From assembly GCA_046758745.1 (NCBI GenBank), contig JBHIAV010000072.1:1-10593 (forward strand): a stretch of 10,593 nucleotides of DNA, in the 5' to 3' direction. Both the position numbers and the translations under genes were made by a program. This DNA is from Gemmatimonadota bacterium (GTDB lineage Bacteria > Gemmatimonadota > Gemmatimonadetes > Palauibacterales > Palauibacteraceae). Below are positions 1 to 10,593 of the stretch, in pieces. The first letter of the stretch is position 1. Every line of letters starts with the position of its first letter. The notes beneath the pieces were generated by a model that worked only from the letters and a program-made list of their open reading frames with translations, did not search any database and had not been told where the DNA came from.

Positions 1-327
1 GTGATCGGAATCATGATGATCTCGGTCACCGAGCGCACCCGGGAGATCGGCCTCCGCAAGTCGATGGGGGCGCGGCGGCGAGACATCCTTTGGCAGTTCC
101 TCGTCGAGGCGGCGACGCTCACCCTTGTCGGCGGCGCCATCGGGATGTTGCTCGGAGGGGGGCTCGTACACCTGGTGAACCGGCTCACCCCGGTGCCCGC
201 CGTCGTTCCGGTGTGGTCGGTCGCCGTCGCCCTGCTCGTGTCGGCGCTGACCGGGATCGGGTTCGGTCTCTACCCTGCCTCCCGCGGCGCGCGCCTGGAC
301 CCGGTGGTGGCGCTGCGCTACGAGTGA
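1..327 (+). CDS. ABC transporter permease, MacB/FtsX family, C-terminal part (5'-truncated by window)
   Basis: Translation has the family motifs SVTERTREIGLRKSMGARRRDILWQFLVEA and GLYPASRGARLDPVVALRYE plus hydrophobic TM segments; stop TGA at 325-327. Confidence 0.93.
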   Translation: MIGIMMISVTERTREIGLRKSMGARRRDILWQFLVEAATLTLVGGAIGMLLGGGLVHLVNRLTPVPAVVPVWSVAVALLVSALTGIGFGLYPASRGARLDPVVALRYE

Positions 328-346
328 CCGTAAGACTCGGGCCGTG

Positions 347-400
347 GCGCGGCGCTCCAGGCCGGCCGACCTCGCCGCGCGGCGCTCCGGGCCGGCCGAC
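347..400. repeat. Direct repeat: two 24-bp copies, 30-bp period
   Basis: GCGCGGCGCTCCAGGCCGGCCGAC (347-370) and GCGCGGCGCTCCGGGCCGGCCGAC (377-400), 23/24 identical. Confidence 0.85.
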
Positions 401-472
401 ATGGCAAGCGGAAAGGGCCGCTCCGGCACACGCGGGAGGGACCGCGCCAGCGCGCCCGGAAGAGGCGTGGGC

Positions 473-1201
473 TTGAACTCCCCGACGACGTCCGTCGACG
501 TCCTCGCCATCGGAGCGCATTGCGATGACGTCGAGCTGGTGTGTGGCGGCACGCTCATCCGCTGCGCCGACCAGGGTTACCGCACCGGCGTGATAGACCT
601 CACCCGGGGCGAGGTGGGAACGAAGGGCTCGGCCGAGATCCGCGCGGCGGAGGCGGCGCGAGCGGCCGAGCTGATGGGGCTCAGCGTGCGGCTCAACGCG
701 GGCTTCTCCGATGCCGGCATCTTCAACACGCCCGAGGCCCGCGAGCGGCTGGCGGAAATGATCCGGCAGCTCACCCCGCGCGTCGTGATCCTCCCCTTCC
801 CCCGTGGCCGCCACCCGGACCACCGCATCACAGCCGAGCTCGGCCGCGACGCCAGCTACCTCGCCGGCCTCCAGCGGTACGGCCGCGGACCCGCGCACCG
901 GCCGCACAAGGTGCTGTACGCGATGGCGTTCCGTGAGGATGCGATCAAGCCCACCTTCGTGGTAAACATCGAGGAGCAGTTCGAGCGGAAGATGCGGGCG
1001 ATCCGTTGTTACGCCTCGCAGTTCGACGCCGCCACGTCGGCGGGCGAGGCGTATCCGACCGGCCAGCCCCTATACGAGCTGGTGGAGGCGCAGAGTCGGC
1101 ACTACGGGTCCCTGATTCGGGCGGGCTTCGGGGAGCCGTTCTACACGGAGGAGACGATGGAAGCCGTGGATATCGTCCGGCTAGGCGTCCGCTCCATGTG
1201 A
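473..1201 (+). CDS. bshB1: Bacillithiol biosynthesis deacetylase BshB1 (PIG-L/LmbE family N-acetyl-alpha-D-glucosaminyl L-malate deacetylase)
   Basis: Metal-binding motifs AHCDD (usually AHPDD) and HPDH, plus DLTRGEVGTKG, CYASQF and GEPF segments typical of BshB1. Start placed at TTG 473 behind the SD-like GGAAGAGG (458-465), giving 242 aa; in-frame GTG 344 and ATG 401 are alternatives. Confidence 0.85.
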   Translation: MNSPTTSVDVLAIGAHCDDVELVCGGTLIRCADQGYRTGVIDLTRGEVGTKGSAEIRAAEAARAAELMGLSVRLNAGFSDAGIFNTPEARERLAEMIRQLTPRVVILPFPRGRHPDHRITAELGRDASYLAGLQRYGRGPAHRPHKVLYAMAFREDAIKPTFVVNIEEQFERKMRAIRCYASQFDAATSAGEAYPTGQPLYELVEAQSRHYGSLIRAGFGEPFYTEETMEAVDIVRLGVRSM

Positions 1202-1212
1202 CGGCACCGTGA

Positions 1213-1234
1213 GACGCCCTGCCCCGCAGGCGTT
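1213..1234. terminator. Possible hairpin between convergent bshB1 and HIRAN-like genes
   Basis: ACGCCCTGC-CCC-GCAGGCGT stem with one bulge. No U-tract on either strand, so terminator function is uncertain. Confidence 0.25.
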
Positions 1235-1258
1235 CGGCCGGCCGGTACGCCGGGCGGT

Positions 1259-1600
1259 CTACCCGCAGGTGACCTCCACGACCAGCCGACGCCAGCTCGG
1301 GACGCTGGCGTCGCCGACCTTCACGGTGCGTGCCAGCGCCCGTCCCCCGTGGCGCATCCACGGCGCCAGCCAGCCGCCGATCTCGTCCGGCAGGTGACCG
1401 ATCGGGTCGCCCGCCGCCGCGTGCACCCACACCTGCTCGACGCCGCTCCCGGCCGGCTCGGGTATGAGGAGCAGGGGGTCGCCCGGCCTCACGCCGGCGA
1501 GAACCCGGGCGCGGTCGCCGAATACGACCCCATGCACGGTCGCCCGAAAAACCGAGGCCGCGGGTGGCGGGAGGGAAGCGGGACGGCGGCGCCGTGGCAT
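1259..1600 (-). CDS. Stand-alone HIRAN-like domain protein (113 aa)
   Basis: Pattern V-x-G-V-x-F...VRPGDPLLLIPEP...VWVH...GDPIGHLP...LAPWM matches the HIRAN layout (GD-L-L-x-EP ... IG[YH]LP ... LAP). ATG 1600 chosen; TTG 1606 is also in frame. Confidence 0.7.
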   Translation of the reverse strand: MPRRRRPASLPPPAASVFRATVHGVVFGDRARVLAGVRPGDPLLLIPEPAGSGVEQVWVHAAAGDPIGHLPDEIGGWLAPWMRHGGRALARTVKVGDASVPSWRRLVVEVTCG

Positions 1601-1606
1601 GGACAA

Positions 1607-1612
1607 ACATTA
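1607..1612 (-). promoter_or_regulatory. Putative -10 element TAATGT giving a leaderless transcript of the HIRAN-like gene
   Basis: Minus strand reads GGC-TAATGT-TTGTCC-ATG: a TAnnnT hexamer 6 nt before the ATG, with no SD, in a short AT-rich patch within a GC-rich spacer. Confidence 0.5.
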
Positions 1613-1887
1613 GCCACGGGAGGGTCGCGGCGCGACGGCGCTCGGCCCGCTCTCCGCCCCGGCGCCCCTGCCGCGTCGGAGCCCGGAGGGCCGGTCCCCG
1701 GGCAGCGGTTCGCGGCCGGAGGCGAGAGGGCCGCTCGGACCGTCGGGACCCCCCGAGCGGGGTGGCGCGGCCACGGTCTCTCGCCCACCTTCCGTGACCG
1801 AGCCAAGCCTCCGCTATGACAGGAGCCGGCGGAGCGCTGACCCGCTCCGCACGCGTGCCACGGAGCAAGCGAAGGAACGAGACTCGA

Positions 1888-3108
1888 ATGCCGTTGCAGC
1901 GACAGGAGACCGGATCGAGCCGGATCTACCTCGACCACGCGGCGACTTCCCCCCTCCGGCCCGAGGTGTGGGAGGCGATGCAGGCGGTGGTCGGGGATGC
2001 GGATTTCAATCCGGCCAGCGTGCACGCCTTCGGGCGCCGCGCCCAGCAGCGCCTCGAGGAGGCACGCGAGGAACTCGCCGCGGCATTGGGGGCGAGCCGG
2101 CGTTGTCTCATCTTGACAGGCGGCGGCACGCACTCCGACAACCTGGCGATCCTCGGCTTTCTGCGCGCGCACCGGAACGAAGGTCCCCGCATATTCGTCT
2201 CCGCGATCGAGCACAAGGCCGTCCTCGAGCCGGCGAAGCGGGCGGCCCGCGAGGGTGCTGAAGTTCACATCGTGCCCGTTGCCGGCTGCGGGACGATCAT
2301 TGCGGACGAGCTCGAGCGCGAGCTCGCCTCCGACTCCGGACGGCCGACGCTCGTCTCGGTGATGTGGGCCAACAACGAGGTCGGAACCGTGCAGCCCGTG
2401 GAGCGCGTCTGCGAGGCCGCGCACCGATACGGGGCGCTCTTCCACACCGACGCGGTGCAGGCGTTCGGCAAGCTTCCGGTGTCGCTCGAGCGGGTGCCCG
2501 CCGACATGTTGACCATCACGGCCCACAAGATCGGCGGACCCGTCGGGATCGGTTTGCTGTACGTGCGGGACGGCCTCTCCCTCGAGCCGCTCATGTACGG
2601 CGGATCTCAGGAACGCGCGATGTGGCCGGGCACTCAGAACCCCATGGCCACGGTCGGGTTCGCGACGGCGGCGCAGCTCGCGGTCGCCGATCTGCCGGTG
2701 TCCGCCCCGGCGTGGCGGCGGCTACGCGACCATCTGGCCGAGCGGCTCCTTGCGAGCGTTCCCGGCCTTCGCGTGCACGCCGCCGAGGCGCAGTCGCGCA
2801 TGCCCAACCTGCTCAGCGTCGGCATCCCCGGCTGCGACCAGGCCTCTCTCCTCCTCTCCCTGGATCTGGCGGGAATCGCCATCTCGGGGGGGTCCGCGTG
2901 CAGCAGCGGATCGGTCGTCGGCTCCCACGTCCTGGAGGCGATGGGCGCGGGGAGCGCCGAGACGGAGTACGCCGCGCTCCGCTTCAGCTTCGGACACAGC
3001 ACGACGGCCCAGGAGATCGACCGGGCGGCCGATGCCGTGGTGCGAGCCGTGGCTCGCTTCCGCCCGACCCGCGATACCTCGACCGCCGCGTCGGGCGGCC
3101 CGGCGTGA
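1888..3108 (+). CDS. iscS: Cysteine desulfurase, group I (IscS/NifS-type, class V PLP aminotransferase)
   Basis: YLDHAATSP, IEHKAV, ANNEVG, HTDAVQ, PLP lysine in TAHKIGGP, catalytic Cys in SGGSACSSG, and LRFSFG. Start ATG 1888 behind AAGGA; ATG 1816 is an in-frame alternative. Confidence 0.92.
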   Translation: MPLQRQETGSSRIYLDHAATSPLRPEVWEAMQAVVGDADFNPASVHAFGRRAQQRLEEAREELAAALGASRRCLILTGGGTHSDNLAILGFLRAHRNEGPRIFVSAIEHKAVLEPAKRAAREGAEVHIVPVAGCGTIIADELERELASDSGRPTLVSVMWANNEVGTVQPVERVCEAAHRYGALFHTDAVQAFGKLPVSLERVPADMLTITAHKIGGPVGIGLLYVRDGLSLEPLMYGGSQERAMWPGTQNPMATVGFATAAQLAVADLPVSAPAWRRLRDHLAERLLASVPGLRVHAAEAQSRMPNLLSVGIPGCDQASLLLSLDLAGIAISGGSACSSGSVVGSHVLEAMGAGSAETEYAALRFSFGHSTTAQEIDRAADAVVRAVARFRPTRDTSTAASGGPA

Positions 3109-3115
3109 GGGCCGC

Positions 3116-4240
3116 GTGAGCAGCCTCGCCTCGGCCGCGGCGGCCGTCCCGGCCGGCCCTCCCGACGCGCGGCACGGGACGGTACTCGTCGCCATGTCGG
3201 GTGGCGTCGACTCGAGCGTCGCGGCGGCGATCCTGCACCGGTCCGGATACCGGGTGGTCGGCGTCACGATGAAGACCTTCTGTTACGGGAAGGTCACCGG
3301 TCCCAGTCGGGCCTGCTGCGGCCTCGAGGGAATCGCCGACGCGCGCTCGGTCGCCGCCCGTCTCGGCGTGGCCCACATGGTGTTCGACGTGGAGGAGCGG
3401 TTCTCGAGCGACGTGATCGAGAACTTCGTGAGCGAGTACGCGGTCGGCCGCACACCGATCCCGTGTGTGCGCTGCAACAGCTTCACCAAGTTTCGGGATC
3501 TCATGGGCCGGGCCGAGCGCCTGGGGTGCGATTTCCTCGCCACGGGCCACTATGCGAGGATCGACCGCACGGCCGGGGAGGCCCGTCTGGTGCGCCCGCG
3601 GGATGAGCGCAAGGACCAGACCTACTTTCTGTGGGGGATCCCGCGCGACGTGTTGGACCGCCTCCTTCTCCCCATCGGCGAGCTGGAAAAGCCGCAAGTG
3701 CGGGCGCTCGCCCGCTCGCTCGGATTGAGCACGGCGGAGAAGCCGGAATCGTACGAGATCTGCTTCGTACCGGACAACGACTACGCGGGCGTGCTCCGCC
3801 GCTACCTGGGCGAGTCGCACCCGGCGCTCTCGCCGGGACCGTTCGTGCTGCGAGACGGAACCGTGGTGGGTGAGCACGAGGGATACGCCCATTTCACGGT
3901 GGGGCAGAGGAAGCGTCTGCCAGGAGGATTCGCCGAACCGATGTACGTGCTCGAGATCCGTCCGGAGACGCGCGCTGTGGTTGTCGGTCCGCGCGCGCAG
4001 CTCGCCACGTCACGGCTCACGGCCGGAGAGGCCAACTGGCTCGCCGAGCCTCCCGAACCCGGCGACACTCTGGGCGTTCGCATCCGCCACGGCGCGGCGG
4101 TGGTGGACGCCACCGTCCTGGATCGTGGGAAGCGCTCGTTCACGGTGGAGCTGACGGGGGCGCAGCGGGCGGTGACGCCCGGTCAGAGCGCGGTCCTGTA
4201 CCGGGGAGACGTGGTGGTGGGAGGCGGCGTCATCCACTAG
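3116..4240 (+). CDS. mnmA: tRNA 2-thiouridine(34) synthase MnmA
   Basis: PP-loop AMSGGVDSS, TPIPCVRCN, ATGHYA, KDQTYFL, ESYEICF, TVGQRK, and TPGQSAVLY...GGG. GTG 3116 lies 7 nt after the desulfurase stop, behind GAGGG. Confidence 0.97.
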   Translation: MSSLASAAAAVPAGPPDARHGTVLVAMSGGVDSSVAAAILHRSGYRVVGVTMKTFCYGKVTGPSRACCGLEGIADARSVAARLGVAHMVFDVEERFSSDVIENFVSEYAVGRTPIPCVRCNSFTKFRDLMGRAERLGCDFLATGHYARIDRTAGEARLVRPRDERKDQTYFLWGIPRDVLDRLLLPIGELEKPQVRALARSLGLSTAEKPESYEICFVPDNDYAGVLRRYLGESHPALSPGPFVLRDGTVVGEHEGYAHFTVGQRKRLPGGFAEPMYVLEIRPETRAVVVGPRAQLATSRLTAGEANWLAEPPEPGDTLGVRIRHGAAVVDATVLDRGKRSFTVELTGAQRAVTPGQSAVLYRGDVVVGGGVIH

Positions 4241-4256
4241 CGGGTCGCCGGGATGG

Positions 4257-5354
4257 TCAGTGCCGCAGGCCTTCCGCCTCGGCGAACTTCTCGATCATCT
4301 CGCGCCCTTCGCGTGAGATCTCCTCCGGCACCCGCACGGCCACCCGAACCAGCTGGTCGCCGATGGCGTCCCCCTTGTGCACGCCGTGGCCCTTGATGCG
4401 GAACGTCGTGCCGCCCTGCGTGCCGGGCGGGATGCGGAGGACGATCCTCTTGTTGTCCACCGTGCGAACTCGGATTCGCGATCCGAGGAGGCTCTGGGCG
4501 AGGTTGATCGGCACCTCGCAGACGAGATCGAGACCGTCACGCGTGAAGAACGGGTCCCTCTTCACCTTGAACCGGACGATCAGGTCACCGGGCGGGCCTC
4601 CGCCCGGCCCGCGCTCGCCCTGACCGGAGATTCGAAGGCGCGATCCCTCTTCCACGCCGGCCGGCACGGCCACGCTGATCTTCCGACGGGTTCGCACCTC
4701 GCCCCGTCCATGGCACGCCGAACAGGGCTCGGAAGGGATCTGCCCACGTCCCACGCACGCGGGACACGGGCGGGTCACCGAGAAGGTGCCCTGCCCGAAC
4801 GTCACCGTGCCGCGTCCGTTGCAGTCTCGGCAGGTCTGCAGCGTCGAGCCGGGCGCGCCTCCCGAGCCGTCGCAGGCGGCGCACTCCTCCTGGATCGGCA
4901 CGGTGATCGTCGCTCTGCCTCCCCGGACCGCTGTGCGAAAGGGAATCTCTACCAGGTACTCGACGTCGTGGCCGCGTTCAGGGCCGCGGCGACGTCCGGC
5001 CGTTCGTTTCCCGAAATCGAAGATCGAGCTGAAGATATCGCCGAGACCACCGATGTCCCCGAGATCCTCGAAACGGAAACCGCCCCCGGGGCCTGGGCGG
5101 CCTCCGGGAGCCCCAATCCCGCCGAGCCCTCCGAACCGGCGCACACGATCGTACTGCTTGCGGCGCTCCGGATCGGAGAGAACCGTGTATGCCTCGGAGA
5201 TCTCCTTGAAGCGCTCGGCGGCCTTCCGGTCGCCGGCATTCTTGTCCGGGTGGTACTGCTTGGCGAGCTTGCGGTACGCCTTCTTGATCTCGTCCGGGGA
5301 GGCGCCCTCCGACACGCCGAGCGTCTGGTAATGGTCCTTTGTCCGGGTGGCCAT
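4257..5354 (-). CDS. dnaJ: Molecular chaperone DnaJ (class A)
   Basis: J domain with HPD, G/F-rich linker with DIF, four CxxCxGxG repeats ([32 protein letters not shown]) and C-terminal domain; its ATG overlaps the grpE stop (TGATG). Confidence 0.97.
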
Positions 5355-6106
5355 CAGACCGCTCCGGGATCCGGCCCATCGTCGCGGCCCGCGGCCTCGG
5401 CTTCGGTCTTCGCGTACCTCGCCACCCCGACCTGCGCCGGCCTGAGGAGCCGGTCCCGGAAGCGGTAGCCCTCCACGAGGACCTGGGTGATGATCTCATC
5501 CTTGCTCGGATCGTCCACCTCGGTGACCAGCAGGGCCTCGTGCAGCGTCGGGTCGAAGCGGGCGCCGAGCGCCTCGATCCGGGAGAGCCCGGCCTCTTCC
5601 AGCGCCTTGCGCAGCTTTCGGTGAATGAGCCCGACGGCCTCTTGCAGGGTCTCGACCGTGACCGTGTCGCCGGGCGTCTCCGCCATTCGCGAGAGGTCGT
5701 CCAGGGTCTCCAGGAGATCCCGGACGAGGTCAGCCTGCGCCCGCTGCCACAAATCCGACTGCTCGCGCCGGGTTCGCTTGCGATAGTTCTCGAACTCCGC
5801 CGCCAGGCGCAGGTGCCGGTCCCTAAGCTCCTCCAGCTCCGCCAGCTCCTCCTCGATCTGAGCGGAGAGGTGCGCGGTCATGTTCTCCGCGCTGGGACCG
5901 GCTCCGGAAGGCTTCTCCTCCCTGGCCGCCGCGCCGGCTGCCGAGGGCGTCTTCCGCCCCGCGGCCGCAGTGGCGTCGGGCTCCTCCTCCCCCGCGGCGG
6001 TGCCGGCTCCCTCCGCCGCCCCGGCATCCGGCTCAGGTGGGACGCCCGCCTCCTCCCCGGCGTTGCGCCTCTCGGCCTCGGGGCGGCCGCCTGTCCGTTC
6101 GCTCAC
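5354..6106 (-). CDS. grpE: Nucleotide exchange factor GrpE with long acidic/Ala-rich N-terminus
   Basis: [21 protein letters not shown] and [16 protein letters not shown] motifs; GTG start behind a strong SD (GGGAGGAG). Confidence 0.96.
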
Positions 6107-6137: not shown

Positions 6138-6989
6138 TCATGCGCTCGTCGGCACCACCTGGCTGCACAGCCAGGAGGCGGCGTCCGACAGACCGTGCTC
6201 GGCTTCAGGATCGTGGTACAGGTCGTGGTACGCCTCGGAGTAGACCCGCACGTCGCACGAGGTCGAGATTCGGTCGCTCAACGCCTCGCTAGCCGCCGAG
6301 TCGACGACCAGGTCCGTACCGGGAAGCTGAAAGAGCACCGGGACCCCGATGCGCTGCTCCCGGTCGACGAGCCGCTTCGCGTTCCGCAGCATCTCGGCCC
6401 ACAGCCGCGCGCTGATGCGCCGATGTACGAGAGGATCCGAGCGATAGGCTTCCCGCTCGGCGTCTTCGCGAAAGAGCACTTCCGGACGCAGCTCGTTGTC
6501 CAGAGTGATCGCCGGAGCCAGGCGGTCCGCCAGCCGGCCGAAGCGGAACTTCCACGCGGGGACCTCCATCGTGAGCCGGATGAAGGGGGCCACGGCCACA
6601 GCCCCGCGAAGGGACGGACAGCCGTACTCCTGCAGATACCGCAGGGTGACCAGCCCGCCGAGCGACTGGCCGAGCAGGAAGGTCGGACAGTGGACGGCAT
6701 CGTATGAGCACACCCTGCGCCGAAGTCGGTCCACGTCCTGGAGCAGATGTTCGAACGCCCTGACGTGGCCCCGCCGCCCCTGCGACCGTCCGTGGCCGCG
6801 CAGGTCCAGACCGTAGGCGGAAAAGCCCGCCGCGTTGAGGGCCCGCGCCACTCCCTCGTACCGCCCGGAGTGCTCGCCGAGCCCGTGCACCAGGAGGACC
6901 GTCGCCCTCGGATCCCGGATCTCCCAGGCGCGGTAGAAGAGGCGCAAGCCCCCCACGCCCTTCACGTATCCGTGCGACTCCTCAGCCAT
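6138..6989 (-). CDS. Alpha/beta hydrolase, lysophospholipase/monoacylglycerol lipase-like (Hydrolase_4)
   Basis: [20 protein letters not shown], nucleophile elbow GQSLGG, candidate Asp (GTDLVV) and His (YHDL). ATG 6989 overlaps the end of the upstream gene by 8 nt. Confidence 0.88.
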
Positions 6990-7491
6990 CGTTCGCCTCG
7001 CCATGAAGCGCGAGCAGCGCCACCAGAGCGGCCTCCACCGCATGCCGCCGCACCTCTTCCCGCTCTCCCGGAAAGCGCTCCGCCCTCTCGGCCCGCCGCG
7101 GCCCGTCGATCGTGATCCACACCGTGCCCACGGGCTTCTCGGGCGTGCCGCCGGAGGGTCCGGCGATGCCGGTGATCGCCACCCCCCAGGTGGCTCCCGA
7201 GCGCTCCCGGACCGCTTGCGCCATCGCCCTCGCCGTTTCGCGGGAGACGGCACCGTGCGCCGCGAGGGTGGCCGCCGGCACGTCGAGAAGTTCTCGCTTC
7301 GCCTCGTCCGCGTAGGCGATCGCGCCGCCCCAGAAGACGTCCGAGGCGCCCGGCACTGCGGTAACCGCCCGGCCGAGCCAGCCGCCCGTGCAGCTTTCGG
7401 CCACGGCGAGGGTTTGGCCGGCTCTACGCAGGCGGCTCACCACCTTCTCCGCGAGTGCGGAGAGACTCGCCCCGGCACCCACCGCGCTCAT
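6982..7491 (-). CDS. pncC: Nicotinamide-nucleotide amidohydrolase PncC (stand-alone CinA C-terminal domain, 169 aa)
   Basis: [21 protein letters not shown] and [10 protein letters not shown]...KPVGTV motifs; ATG 7491 forms an ATGA overlap with the pgsA stop, behind GGAAGG. Confidence 0.9.
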
Positions 7492-8120
7492 GCCGCCTTC
7501 CCGGCGAACAGCCGCTGAAAGCCAAAAAGGTACACGCCCATGGAGTAAACCGTAAGCGTGAGCGCGACCACCAGACCGAGGGTCGTGAACCACCCGTGGA
7601 ACGCCTCCCACCCCTGTGCGAGTCCGCCGGACCAGCCCTGCTGGACCGCGGCCGCTCGGAAGGCGAGCCACAGGATCATCGCCCCGATGAAGATGTTTTG
7701 GGCGAGGGCCTTGAGTTTGCCCGACGGGCCCGCCGGAACCACCCTTCCGAGCCGTACGGCGGCCATGCGCAGGCCTGTGATCAGGAGCTCGCGCGCCAGG
7801 AAGACCAGAAGCGCCCACAGGGGGAAGCCGTCAAAAATCGGGAGCCCTCCGAGGACCGGGTCCCGGCGCGTGACGAGGTAGAAGGGTATGAGGGTGACCG
7901 CCAGCAAAAGCTTGTCGGCGATCGGATCGACCAGCTTGCCGAAGTCGGTGATCTGACCTCGCCGGCGGGCGAGTTCGCCGTCCCACAGATCGGAGAGCGC
8001 CGCCAGGAGGAAGACAAGAAATCCGATGAGACGGGCCTCGGCACTCGGCCGTAGAAGCAGGGCGGCGACCACGGGAGCCAGAACCACGCGTAGCGTGGTG
8101 ACCGCATTGGGAAGGTTCAC
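7488..8120 (-). CDS. pgsA: CDP-diacylglycerol--glycerol-3-phosphate 3-phosphatidyltransferase
   Basis: N-terminal MNLPNxxTxxR, CDP-alcohol phosphotransferase motif [40 protein letters not shown] and multiple TM helices. Confidence 0.92.
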
Positions 8121-8132
8121 CGGTCCCTCGCC

Positions 8133-8711
8133 TCAGCTGAGCGAGGTGATGACCTGCTTCGAAACGGCCTTCAAGGTCTCGAACACGCCCTCGCCCTCGA
8201 CAGCTATCGCCTCGAAGGAGGGAAAGCCGCCCCGGTTGAGGGCCTGCTCCAGTTCGGCCACCGGCATCACGTCGGCCAGGTCCCTCTTGTTGTACTGGAA
8301 GACGCAGGGCATCGAATCGAGATCCCGCCCCGTCTCGGTCAGGTTCTCGCAAAGGTTCGCCAGCGACTCCACGTTGTCCTCGAGGCGATCCAGCTGGCTG
8401 TCGGCCACGAAGACTATCCCGTCGACCCCACGCACGATGAGCCGCCGGCTCTCGTTGTATCGCACCTCACCCGGCACCGTATAGAGGTGAAAGCGCGTCT
8501 TGTACCCGCGAACCTTGCCGAGGTCGACCGACAGAAAGTCGAAGAACAGGGTGCGGTGGCTGTCCGTGGATGGCGTGATCAGCTTGCCTCGCGTGGCCGG
8601 GTCCAGCTTTCGGTATACGTACTTTAGATTGGTGGTCTTTCCGCTGGATGCGGGACCGTAGTAGACGATCTTGCAGTCGAGCTCGCCGCCCGCCTGGTTA
8701 GTCGTCGCCAT
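8133..8711 (-). CDS. mglA: MglA-family small Ras-like GTPase (192 aa), divergent at catalytic positions
   Basis: CKIVYYGPASSGKTTNL (G1), RTLFFDFL (G2), FHLYTVPGE (G3), GVDGIVFVADSQ and QYNKRD (G4); collinear with Myxococcus MglA as recalled. ATG 8711 behind AGGGGG. Confidence 0.93.
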   Translation of the reverse strand: MATTNQAGGELDCKIVYYGPASSGKTTNLKYVYRKLDPATRGKLITPSTDSHRTLFFDFLSVDLGKVRGYKTRFHLYTVPGEVRYNESRRLIVRGVDGIVFVADSQLDRLEDNVESLANLCENLTETGRDLDSMPCVFQYNKRDLADVMPVAELEQALNRGGFPSFEAIAVEGEGVFETLKAVSKQVITSLS

Positions 8712-8772
8712 GAGCCCCCTGGAGGGCCCCGATGGGCGCCCGCTCGCACCGCACGAATCCCTCCCGGAGCAA

Positions 8773-9114
8773 CTATGCTTCCTCGGCGCTTTCCACCGCC
8801 GCCAGATCCTCCTCCATCTCCGTGAGGATGTGGGCGGCACGTCGACGCAGGATCGGACGCTCCTCCCAGGCGACGTAGTCCCGAAGGAGCAGCACGTTGT
8901 CCACGGCCGGATGGGATCGGAGGTATCCGAGCGCCGCCAGCCGGCGGAGGGGGTGAGGACTGAATAGATCGCGCTGATGCCGTGACATCTGGTCCCGGGC
9001 CACCAGCAGTCCGATGACGCCGAGGGCCGCGACGCCCAGGGCCGCCAGCCCGGCGATCTTCAGGAAACGCCACGCGCCGTCCTCGGAACTCGATCGCGCC
9101 ACCACTACCTTCAT
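8773..9114 (-). CDS. Hypothetical 113-aa protein: one N-terminal TM helix plus a short helical (HEAT-like) domain
   Basis: SD GAGGAG and ATG 7 nt after the recR stop; hydrophobic run IAGLAALGVAALGVIGLLVA; amphipathic segments PLRRLAALGYL and LRRRAAHIL. Confidence 0.8.
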   Translation of the reverse strand: MKVVVARSSSEDGAWRFLKIAGLAALGVAALGVIGLLVARDQMSRHQRDLFSPHPLRRLAALGYLRSHPAVDNVLLLRDYVAWEERPILRRRAAHILTEMEEDLAAVESAEEA

Positions 9115-9121
9115 CCGCTCC

Positions 9122-9715
9122 TCACATTTCCCGTCGTCCGCTCAACGCCTCAGCGATCGTTACCCCATCGGCGTATTCGAGATCGCCGCCGACCGGGAGA
9201 CCCCGCGCCAGACGCGTGACCCGAATCCCCTCGAGCGGGATGACGAGCTTGTGCAGGTACGTCGCCGTCGCTTCCCCTTCCACGCTCGGATTGGTCGCTA
9301 TGATGACCTCGCGTATCCCCTTCTTCAGGCGCTCGGTCAGCCGCGCGATGTTGAGGTCGTCAGGGCCGACCCCGTCCAACGGCGAGAGCCGGCCACCTAG
9401 CACGTGATAGCGGCCCCGGTATTGCCCCGACCTCTCGATGGCCGGGATGTCCGACGCTTCCTCCACGATGCAGAGCTGGCTCGCATCGCGGCGGGGGCTG
9501 CGGCAGTACTCGCACGGGTCCGTGTCGCTGAGATTGCCACACTCCGAGCACGGCTTCACCTCCTCCACCACCCGCTCGATCGCACGCGCGAGCCGGCTGG
9601 GTTGCGCCGGGGCCGTCTTCAGCAGGTGGTACGTCAGCCGCTGTGCCGTTTTCTGACCGACGCCGGGCAGGCGGCTGAACTCCGCGATCAGCTCTTCGAT
9701 CGCCGGCTTCTCCAC
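9122..9715 (-). CDS. recR: Recombination mediator RecR
   Basis: HhH LPGVGQKTAQR, zinc finger CSECGN...PCEYC, YHVLGGRLSPLDGVGP, Toprim EVIIATNPSVEGEATA and GLPVGGDLEYAD. Confidence 0.98.
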   Translation of the reverse strand: MEKPAIEELIAEFSRLPGVGQKTAQRLTYHLLKTAPAQPSRLARAIERVVEEVKPCSECGNLSDTDPCEYCRSPRRDASQLCIVEEASDIPAIERSGQYRGRYHVLGGRLSPLDGVGPDDLNIARLTERLKKGIREVIIATNPSVEGEATATYLHKLVIPLEGIRVTRLARGLPVGGDLEYADGVTIAEALSGRREM

Positions 9716-9733
9716 GATGTCCCGAACGCGCGG

Positions 9734-10069
9734 TCAGCCCCCGAGCAGGCTGCCGAGATTCGGGAGGGGCAGGCCGCCGGCCGCCTGCTTCATCTCCCGA
9801 TCGAGCCGCTCCTTCGCTCGGGCCTGCGCCTGCGAGATCGCGGCCAGGATGAGGTCTTCCAACATCTCGATCTCGGACGGATCCACGGCCGAGGGGTCGA
9901 GACGTATCCCCCGGATCGTGCCCTTCCCGTCCGCGGTGACCTCGACCACTCCGCCCCCGCTGGTGACGGTGAACGTCTCCTGCTCGAGCCGCTGCTGCAC
10001 GTCTGCCAGGCGCGCCTGGACCTGTTGCCCGAGCTGGAAAAGCTGCTGTATCTGGTTCAGGTTCTCCAT
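9734..10069 (-). CDS. ybaB: Nucleoid-associated protein, YbaB/EbfC family
   Basis: SGGGVVEVTADG and EMLEDLILAA motifs; canonical position between dnaX and recR; SD AAGGAG. Confidence 0.95.
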   Translation of the reverse strand: MENLNQIQQLFQLGQQVQARLADVQQRLEQETFTVTSGGGVVEVTADGKGTIRGIRLDPSAVDPSEIEMLEDLILAAISQAQARAKERLDREMKQAAGGLPLPNLGSLLGG

Positions 10070-10076
10070 CGATTGA

Positions 10077-10592
10077 TCACTCCTTCAACCGCAAGTCCAG
10101 CTCTCGTACAGCCTCTCTCAACCGGGGATCCACTTCCACCATCTTCGCGAGGCGTTGCTCGCGCGCCGCGGCCGCGGTGAGGCGGCGGCGCCCCCCTGCC
10201 TCCTGGACGCGGAAGGCAAGCTCGGCCGGCGTCGTTCCGAGCCGCGCGGCGAGCGCTCCCCGCAGGGAGGCGGAGCGCTGCCCATCGTCCAGAAACCGCT
10301 GCAAGTCCTCGGCCAGCCCCGGCGGCACGCCAAGATGGAGCTCACCACCCTCCAGGGACAGTACGCTGACCCCCGAGAGGACGAGCGCCTGACCCCCCAG
10401 GCCTTCCGCCGCGGCGATGGCGTCGCGCCATGCCTCGCGCAGGCCCGGAGCGCCGCCTGCGGGCCCCGTGTCGGCTGCGGGCGCTCCGGCAGAGGGCGTC
10501 GCGGGGTCCGGCCCTGCGTTCTCACCGGAGGCGGGGGAGCCTCCCTGGCGGGCGGTTGCCCCGGCGGGGCGGGACGGAGTCGAGCCGCGGGC
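10077..10592 (-). CDS. dnaX: Probable C-terminus of DNA polymerase III subunit gamma/tau (5'-truncated by window)
   Basis: Manual translation shows the 10077-10328 frame stays open to the window edge: a Pro/Ala/Gly linker, then LREAWRDAI...LHLGVPPG...DPRLREAVRELDLRLKE. Identity rests mainly on dnaX-ybaB-recR synteny; the AAA+ domain is outside the window. Confidence 0.75.
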   Translation of the reverse strand, partial: ARGSTPSRPAGATARQGGSPASGENAGPDPATPSAGAPAADTGPAGGAPGLREAWRDAIAAAEGLGGQALVLSGVSVLSLEGGELHLGVPPGLAEDLQRFLDDGQRSASLRGALAARLGTTPAELAFRVQEAGGRRRLTAAAAREQRLAKMVEVDPRLREAVRELDLRLKE

Positions 10593-10593
10593 C

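Follow-up and report, generated by a model that had tools for sequence, protein, structure and literature searches.

What happens to a Ras-like switch when the gene of its GTPase-activating protein (GAP) is deleted? This question is raised by a gene on contig JBHIAV010000072.1 of a Gemmatimonadota bacterium, whose 10,593 nucleotides, analysed as a whole, we call the window. At positions 8133-8711 its reverse strand encodes a small GTPase of the MglA type. MglA and its GAP, MglB, are the model bacterial Ras-GAP polarity switch. The original prediction, made from the letters of the window, was that two hydrolysis-critical residues of this MglA, Gly21 and Gln82, have been replaced and that the protein may represent a hydrolysis-impaired or GAP-independent subfamily, that is, a rewired switch. 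Taken as a whole, this interpretation is partly supported. The window does encode a genuine, intact MglA-type small GTPase, and the reading that we favour, and hold to be probable, is that of a nucleotide-binding MglA, GAP-independent and still under selection, whose hydrolysis has been altered and which became an orphan after the deletion of mglB in the ancestor of its family.

Regarding the identity of the gene, the reading frame starts with the ATG at 8711 and ends with the stop codon at 8133-8135, giving a product of 192 amino acids. An alternative GTG start at 8840 gives a longer frame; all the homologues begin instead at the position of MATTN/MSMIN. The domain databases return generic signals, namely Arf/small GTPase in Pfam (29 bits) and, as the only match in NCBIfam, a sub-threshold one to small_GTP. 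Among the PDB sequences, the MglA of Myxococcus xanthus aligns colinearly over residues 3-191 without indels (E 1.8e-71) and so does, also free of indels, the MglA of Thermus thermophilus (E 2.7e-67). Because the first of these alignments has no indels, the residue numbers used here are those of the M. xanthus protein. The AlphaFold2 model of the product has a predicted local distance difference test score (pLDDT) of 87 and a predicted template modelling score of 0.87, with low confidence at residues 50-53 only (pLDDT < 50), and Foldseek superposes it on 6izw_A, from the MglA-GTPgammaS-MglB complex, with a template modelling score of 0.92. The product is a single-domain Ras-like G domain with the MglA fold, and its length lies within the 190-200 residues or so that are expected of a Group-1 MglA. 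It is an orthologue of canonical mglA both by position, as the locus is shared, and by phylogeny, as the MglAs of the window's family are nested within the canonical MglAs of the phylum. The genome (3.08 Mb, 87.4% complete, in 130 contigs) contains a single MglA-like gene. The assignment to MglA was confirmed by the sequence match as well as by the fold match, and the predicted coordinates, residues and numbering all proved correct when read directly from the sequence.

Both replacements can be read from the codons. In the P-loop GPASSGKT (codons 19-26, 8634-8657, on the reverse strand like all the codons that follow), G19, G24, K25 and T26 are kept, and codon 21, which corresponds to Gly12 of Ras, is GCA for alanine (8649-8651). 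The G3 motif has T78, V79, P80 and G81, that is four of the five residues of TVPGQ, and at the position of the catalytic glutamine codon 82 is GAG for glutamate (8466-8468), giving TVPGE. The G4 motif of guanine specificity, NKRD (codons 141-144, 8280-8291), is intact, so that both GxxxxGK[ST] and NKxD are found, the former with Ala at the usual Gly21. The intrinsic arginine finger R53 (CGC, 8553-8555) is also retained and stands beside T54, the threonine of G2, an arrangement that is part of the definition of Group-1 MglA as given in the accessible text of its description (PMC4316618, Wuichet & Sogaard-Andersen 2014). Codon 52, which adjoins the finger, is CAC for histidine (8556-8558).

In order to know how rare these residues are, we tallied the best 120 of 8000 scored homologues and the best 150 of 6719 representatives, the latter clustered at 50% identity. 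At position 21, 115 of the 120 homologues have G and 5 have A; all of them have R53, and Q82 is found in 119, the single protein with E82 being the window's own; His52 is likewise found in the window only, the other 119 having E or D. Among the 150 representatives, position 21 is G in 125, A in 22, S in 2 and E in 1, while R53 and Q82 are present in 150/150 and E82 in none. The five A21 proteins (the window's and P0002-P0005, 66-79% identical) share GPASSGKT, the N-terminus MxTTN and VR[YF] after G3, and the nearest relatives among them, P0002 and P0003 with 77-79% identity, carry Q82. According to these tallies, A21 recurs as a natural variant and characterises a clade, whereas E82 is rare and private to the window's species. 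Thus A21 and E82 cannot stand as one subfamily signature, as had been supposed, since A21 is common in MglA proteins at large (22 of the 150 representatives) and E82 is not. In total, eight substitutions are found in the window's protein only, and three of them (D50, H52 and E82) lie in switch I and II.

The locus itself indicates what has been lost. Around mglA the genes are closely packed and run in one direction, in the order dnaX(C-terminus)-ybaB-recR-orf113-mglA-pgsA-cinA-hydrolase-grpE-dnaJ, with 61 bp upstream of mglA (8712-8772) and 12 bp downstream. We compared 60 genomes, 36 from the window's family (f1) and 24 from the sister family (f2), or 61 with the window's own. In all eight f2 loci examined, the order is recR-orf113-mglA-pgsA with a gap of about 540 bp before mglA, and this gap holds a gene for a Roadblock protein of 166 amino acids, mglB. 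The 15 f1 loci with mglA and the window read recR-orf113-mglA-pgsA, and the place of mglB is taken in the window by the 61 bp just mentioned. MglA-like genes are present in 15/36 f1 genomes and in 24/24 f2 genomes. The Roadblock domain (PF03259) was found in 0/36 f1 genomes, 22 of which are at least 90% complete, versus 24/24 in f2, where one copy is directly upstream of mglA. The window's genome, with 87.4% completeness, gave no match to PF03259, a search with the sister-family MglB found nothing in it at E<=1, and there is no mglB within four genes of mglA, the arrangement by which a coupled MglA/MglB module is recognised. Among the 21 f1 genomes without mglA, the 16 examined all read recR-orf113-pgsA, the gene being cleanly excised. 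Since the synteny is exact, canonical mglA and the window's gene are positional orthologues; therefore, mglB was deleted in the f1 ancestor and mglA was later excised in several lineages.

As a separate observation, f2 genomes have a second MglA paralogue (for example at G040:C1:1672149-1673912), about 50% identical to the window's protein and preceded by three tandem Roadblock-domain genes. The entire cluster is missing from f1.

The original prediction had proposed that residues 21, 53 and 82 should be examined for co-variation with mglB, and the result was as expected, with mglB gone from its slot in f1 and the sister family canonical throughout. The f2 count comprises 23 MglAs, the copy of the 24th genome being split over contigs and left out, and all the 23 have G21, R53 and Q82. 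Among the 16 MglAs of f1, the window's included, Gly21 is found in none (A in 6, E in 4, F in 2, S in 1 and R in 3), Arg53 in 10 (the others being K, G three times, S and H) and Gln82 in 4 (the others being E in 2, R in 3, G in 3, D in 2, T and A). Nevertheless, G19, G24, K25, D58, N141 and D144 are invariant in 16/16, and position 54 is T in 13, S in 2 and G in 1. In the available part of the structural study of the complex, catalysis is assigned to R53 and Q82, which MglB reorients, whereas T54 and D58 ligate the Mg2+ of the bound GTPgammaS (PMC6785124). With the roles given there, fixed binding residues beside variable R53 and Q82 mean that nucleotide binding has been conserved and hydrolysis released.

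We mapped these changes on a quick IQ-TREE tree of the locus (four linked neighbour genes, 622 columns), whose 45 genomes were the 16 of f1 with mglA, 16 of the 21 of f1 that lack it, and 13 of the 24 of f2. The window's family is monophyletic (support 100), and mglA is kept in all 13 members of a clade that holds the window (support 99), plus one other genus. By parsimony, the presence and absence of mglA needs 3 changes, a single loss accounts for Gly21 and four losses each for Arg53 and Gln82, and position 82 underwent nine state changes. On the MglA tree the f1 proteins form one clade (support 96) with long branches, of which that of G034 reaches 1.59. The window's terminal branch is 0.13, compared with 0.11 and 0.13 in its sisters with Q82; because it is no longer than theirs, we rejected the idea that E82 had come with a burst of further change in this lineage.

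Regarding selection, we calculated pairwise ratios of non-synonymous to synonymous substitution rates (dN/dS) with NG86 in 7 f2 pairs and 9 f1 pairs, YN00 giving no value for most pairs, and since dS was 0.4-1.6, which is near saturation, the neighbour genes were used as a control. In f2, mglA ranged from 0.005 to 0.030, recR from 0.060 to 0.113 and pgsA from 0.074 to 0.141, which places mglA with the most tightly constrained genes there. The corresponding ranges in f1 were 0.046-0.612, 0.067-0.160 and 0.078-0.296, so that mglA is at about the level of its neighbours, equalling or exceeding them in 8 of the 9 pairs. Between the window's genome and its nearest one, G004, the values were 0.264 for mglA, 0.116 for recR, 0.189 for orf113 and 0.231 for pgsA. 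All the 16 MglA reading frames of f1 are intact, with lengths of 190-201 amino acids. Thus, after the loss of mglB, the gene relaxed in f1 to an ordinary one that is clearly still under purifying selection, and the decay with a dN/dS near 1 that the original prediction had named as a danger to it is not seen.

The strongest purifying selection in f1 was observed in a pair with Phe21 and Arg82 (L029 and L030, from G031 and G016; GPFRSGKT and AAPGR), which are 92% identical with a dN/dS of 0.046, and this value argues that at least some of the eroded forms are functional.

The window's family is not the only one in the phylum with MglB-less genomes. We tallied MglA and Roadblock by family in a sample of 251 genomes (the tallies of f3, f4 and f8 include four unpublished genomes, none of whose sequences was used). 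Both were present in all the genomes of f3 (113/113), f5 (4/4), f7 (3/3) and f8 (3/3); in f4, MglA was found in 53/53 and Roadblock in 50/53, and in f6 these counts were 14/37 and 1/37. The 17 MglB-less genomes that we fetched all keep mglA at a recR-(orf113)-mglA-pgsA locus. One f6 genus, which belongs to the window's class and has mglA at the recR-orf113-mglA-pgsA locus, shows R53S with G21 and Q82 kept and no Roadblock in 8 of 8 genomes (L091-L098: G251, G177, G195, G193, G134, G117, G253 and G216). In f4, G142 (L101, G142:C4:99866-103345) has T21 and K53 and no Roadblock match, and its MglA is far more divergent (E 1.5e-45) than those of the congeners that keep Roadblock (about 8e-65), so this looks like a recent and independent GAP loss followed by change of the active site. 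Therefore, there are at least three separate lineages in which the loss of the GAP was followed by erosion of the catalytic trio, a different residue being hit each time, although such erosion is not obligatory. The pattern matches a previous tally of nine species without MglB, of which four have G21 and five A or S at this position, as given in the part of PMC3983030 at hand.

On this basis, the sequence of events reads as follows. In the ancestor of f1, the recR-orf113-mglB-mglA-pgsA operon lost the cognate GAP gene by deletion, and all the other Roadblock genes disappeared too. With MglB gone, selection for MglB-assisted hydrolysis came to an end. Gly21 was replaced on the f1 stem and Arg53 and Gln82 afterwards, repeatedly and in different lineages, and the residues that bind the nucleotide and Mg2+ (G19, G24, K25, D58, N141 and D144) remained fixed. 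The window's protein is the least eroded member of f1, having A21 from its clade and R53 kept, and Q82E and D52H arose on its own terminal lineage. It probably still binds GTP and acts as a GAP-independent, mostly GTP-bound regulator whose hydrolysis is slow or otherwise altered, as has been proposed for the MglA of Bdellovibrio, which is considered below. Type IV pili are the classical output of MglA, and they, or another polar function, would be its likely output here. All 61 genomes, the window's own included, carry PilT and PilM, and for this reason we rejected the loss of type IV pili as the cause of the relaxation. The gene is presumably transcribed within the housekeeping operon; a scan of 6900-10593 for promoters and terminators was uninformative, with no promoter-like sites and two terminator-like sites versus 1.4 expected.

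Several points weigh against this proposal. The constraint on mglA in f1 is 10- to 50-fold weaker than on the canonical mglA of f2, and the dS behind these values is nearly saturated. The gene was lost at least three times independently in f1, with clean excision in every mglA-less genome examined, and these genomes still carry PilT and PilM, which means that mglA is dispensable for whatever f1 does with pili. The loss of mglB in f1 was a single event and, therefore, the contrast of 16 versus 23 proteins does not amount to 39 independent data points. Five f6 genomes as well as G144 and G220 lack MglB and yet stay G21/R53/Q82, so GAP loss does not force the substitutions; a sixth f6 genome with the canonical trio, G273, has a weak Roadblock match. 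The completeness of the window's genome means that a Roadblock gene elsewhere in it cannot be fully excluded. Finally, GTP binding, the rate of hydrolysis and any partner are all deduced.

The first two of these points are also what the main competing explanation would predict. In this explanation, mglA would be a dispensable remnant: once the polarity module, that is MglB and the other Roadblock proteins, was lost, the gene would have persisted for no other reason than its place in a housekeeping operon, and E82, H52 and A21 would be neutral or slightly deleterious steps of a drift towards deletion. Besides the relaxed constraint, which reaches or surpasses that of the neighbours, and the absence of the gene from 21 of the 36 f1 genomes, it is favoured by the many different amino acids at the catalytic positions, by the number of state changes at position 82 and by the very long branches such as that of G034. 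A mere remnant, however, would hardly be expected to keep its reading frame and length in 16 of 16 cases with the nucleotide- and Mg-binding residues invariant, nor to show dN/dS values well below 1 (0.05-0.6, and the lowest one in the G016-G031 pair), a confident AlphaFold2 model and retention in every genome of the window's clade. We therefore regard this explanation as a serious possibility, but a doubtful one. As for the predicted rewired switch, it has to compete with this alternative, since the constraint has been relaxed and the gene lost repeatedly.

Beyond the still-selected orphan that we favour, a bolder extension can be formulated, which we find unlikely. According to it, f1 would record a stepwise passage from a Ras-like switch to a bacterial pseudo-GTPase that binds nucleotide independently of hydrolysis and is still under purifying selection. 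The steps would be the deletion of the GAP, the loss of Gly21 and the repeated loss of Arg53 and Gln82, with GKT, D58 and NKxD frozen. The window's protein would stand at the first step, and its private Q82E, together with D52H, would serve as a compensatory general base for GAP-free, self-timed hydrolysis.

Taken as an alternative on its own, the compensation would work as follows: Glu82 would serve as an internal general base and speed up intrinsic hydrolysis in the absence of a GAP, and the protein would have regained a self-timed on/off cycle instead of being locked in one state. The model for this is Ras Q61E, described in the accessible parts of PMC2987813 and PMC10515638 as having increased intrinsic GTPase activity. 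Furthermore, the window's protein retains R53, T54, D58 and G81, position 82 is acidic more than once in f1 (E in 2/16 and D in 2/16), and the neighbouring D52H could be the charge-compensating partner. Nevertheless, A21 stands at the position of Ras G12, and the G21V protein of T. thermophilus is reported to have a 7-fold lower kcat (PMC3000849, as available in part); Q82 and R53 need the repositioning induced by MglB, which a change of side chain does not supply, at least according to the accessible sections of PMC6785124; the other f1 members have R, G, T or A at position 82, with no consistent trend towards a base; and a putative H52-E82 contact would involve residues 50-53, where the model is unreliable (pLDDT below 50). 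This alternative thus appears quite improbable. It bears on the original prediction all the same, because the activity of Ras Q61E means that a compensatory role is possible and that the claim of impaired hydrolysis is not established; the claim was an inference in the first place. In M. xanthus, MglA with Q82A or Q82R is reported, in the material available, to be unstable.

Another alternative is that hydrolysis is still driven by a GAP, either a non-Roadblock one or a Roadblock protein whose gene lies in the unassembled 12.6% of the genome, and that A21 and E82 are adaptations to the new partner. The incomplete genome leaves room for this, the active site has stayed fully canonical in some MglB-less lineages, and M. 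xanthus SofG is an MglA-family GTPase for which the accessible text of PMC4316618 gives no known GAP and excludes MglB. However, the absence of Roadblock from every f1 genome, including the 22 that are at least 90% complete, against its presence in all of f2 speaks in the other direction, the syntenic slot is empty on one contiguous contig, and the loss of R53 and Q82 in many f1 members is hard to square with a GAP acting through them. We consider it very unlikely.

Finally, a sequencing or assembly error of GAG for CAG at codon 82, which the original prediction had kept in reserve, can practically be dismissed: it would take one base and E82 is a singleton among the homologues tallied, but independent Logan assemblies of four runs (X1-X4) show no differences from the window across 8466-8468, the exact protein is on record on 3 contigs from two sources (NCBI and Logan), and the same lineage has further private changes in the switch regions, D50 and H52. 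The four runs are four samples of one hydrothermal-vent study, two of which may be the source of the window. Their contigs, all of DNA type and matching without a difference, cover the whole of 7400-9400 in X1 and X2, 7461-9009 in X3 and 8461-8915 in X4, and as contigs they cannot reveal minority alleles at codon 82. The same metagenomes hold short foreign contigs that match the P-loop region 8651-8684 only, with a few different letters, so other MglA-bearing organisms are present in the samples.

The closest known counterpart of the still-selected, GAP-independent MglA that we favour is the MglA of Bdellovibrio bacteriovorus (Bd3734), which, as far as the available text of PMC3983030 goes, is a Group-1 protein with a natural residue other than Gly at position 21, from a genome without mglB that has type IV pilus genes and shares dnaX-recR-mglA synteny with mglB-bearing relatives. 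The window's gene resembles it in combining A21 with a genome where no Roadblock was found. In that work S21 is read as GTP-locking, and a permanently GTP-bound, GAP-independent state is proposed, itself by inference. The two cases differ in several respects. The residue is S21 there and A21 here, in a different phylum; the PM3/G3 motif is conserved there, whereas here Q82 is Glu and D52 is His (PMC3983030, same limits); RomR and one more partner, as well as a phenotype of the knockout, are described there; and the window's family shows graded erosion and repeated gene loss throughout.

Compared with the canonical MglAs of M. xanthus and T. thermophilus, the window's protein has the same fold and length, is colinear and has T78-V79-P80-G81, R53, T54/D58, GKT and NKxD. 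It differs in A21, in E82, in the lack of a cognate MglB, in the weaker constraint already described and in changes at about 20 positions with a conservation of at least 95% in canonical proteins, clustered in the N-terminal strand, the P-loop, the segment before switch I and switch II. SofG is similar in belonging to the MglA family with an intrinsic arginine and, in the part of PMC4316618 at our disposal, without MglB stimulation; however, it is a 239-residue paralogue beside MglA and MglB, whereas the window's gene is the single positional mglA orthologue, without MglB. The analogy with Ras, where A21 and E82 correspond to the G12 and Q61 positions, is only functional. Substitutions of Ras G12 lower hydrolysis and sensitivity to the GAP, in contrast to the gain of Q61E (PMC2987813, PMC10515638, PMC3983030 and PMC3000849, each as available in part). 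In Ras the arginine finger comes from the GAP and MglA carries its own, so the effects of the mutations may not transfer.

The idea of an MglB-less, GAP-independent MglA is not new, as the S21 protein of Bdellovibrio was described in 2014 and five species with A or S21 without MglB are mentioned in the available part of the same report (PMC3983030). Orphan MglAs amounted to 59 of 449 in an earlier catalogue, which also lists Group-1 MglA in Gemmatimonadetes (PMC4316618, in its accessible portion) and was the only result of a literature search for MglA, MglB and Gemmatimonadetes together. A search for MglA with Q82E found no report, although the supplementary tables of PMC4316618 and PMC3983030 may list similar sequences. 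Thus the pattern is already known from Bdellovibrio and no new kind of system is revealed. What is new here is the natural Q82E, the graded, family-wide series of erosion with a syntenic control and the quantified relaxation of constraint. Lineages that delete the GAP naturally show which parts of the GTPase serve nucleotide binding and which serve GAP-assisted hydrolysis only. In the present case the deletion of mglB can be seen at a fixed locus with the sister family as control, which extends the single example of Bdellovibrio to a second phylum, and the graded series of natural mutants, the Q82E protein included, is material for testing an MglA without a GTPase cycle.

As for the neighbouring genes, all on the reverse strand, recR (9122-9715, by Pfam) is an upstream member of the dnaX-ybaB-recR-orf113-(mglB)-mglA-pgsA array, and a pgsA-like CDP-alcohol phosphatidyltransferase (7488-8120, by Pfam) follows mglA. 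The immediate upstream neighbour, orf113 (8773-9114), encodes a small conserved membrane protein of about 113 amino acids with one predicted membrane helix and no Pfam match at E<=0.01; its sister-family orthologue has a faint HEAT-like stretch (HEAT_2, E 0.037, below the cut-off). It is present in 60/61 genomes of the order, in 36/36 of f1 and in other families of the phylum, and it is kept without mglA and mglB. We considered orf113 as a dedicated MglA partner replacing MglB and rejected this, because it occurs regardless of mglA and precedes mglB in f2.

The rest of the window, from 1 to 6106, is ordinary housekeeping. It comprises the C-terminus of an FtsX-type permease (1-327), a PIG-L family deacetylase (344-1201), a class-V aminotransferase/cysteine desulfurase (1816-3108), an MnmA-type tRNA thiouridylase (about 3155-4240) and, on the reverse strand, DnaJ (4257-5354) and GrpE (5354-6106).

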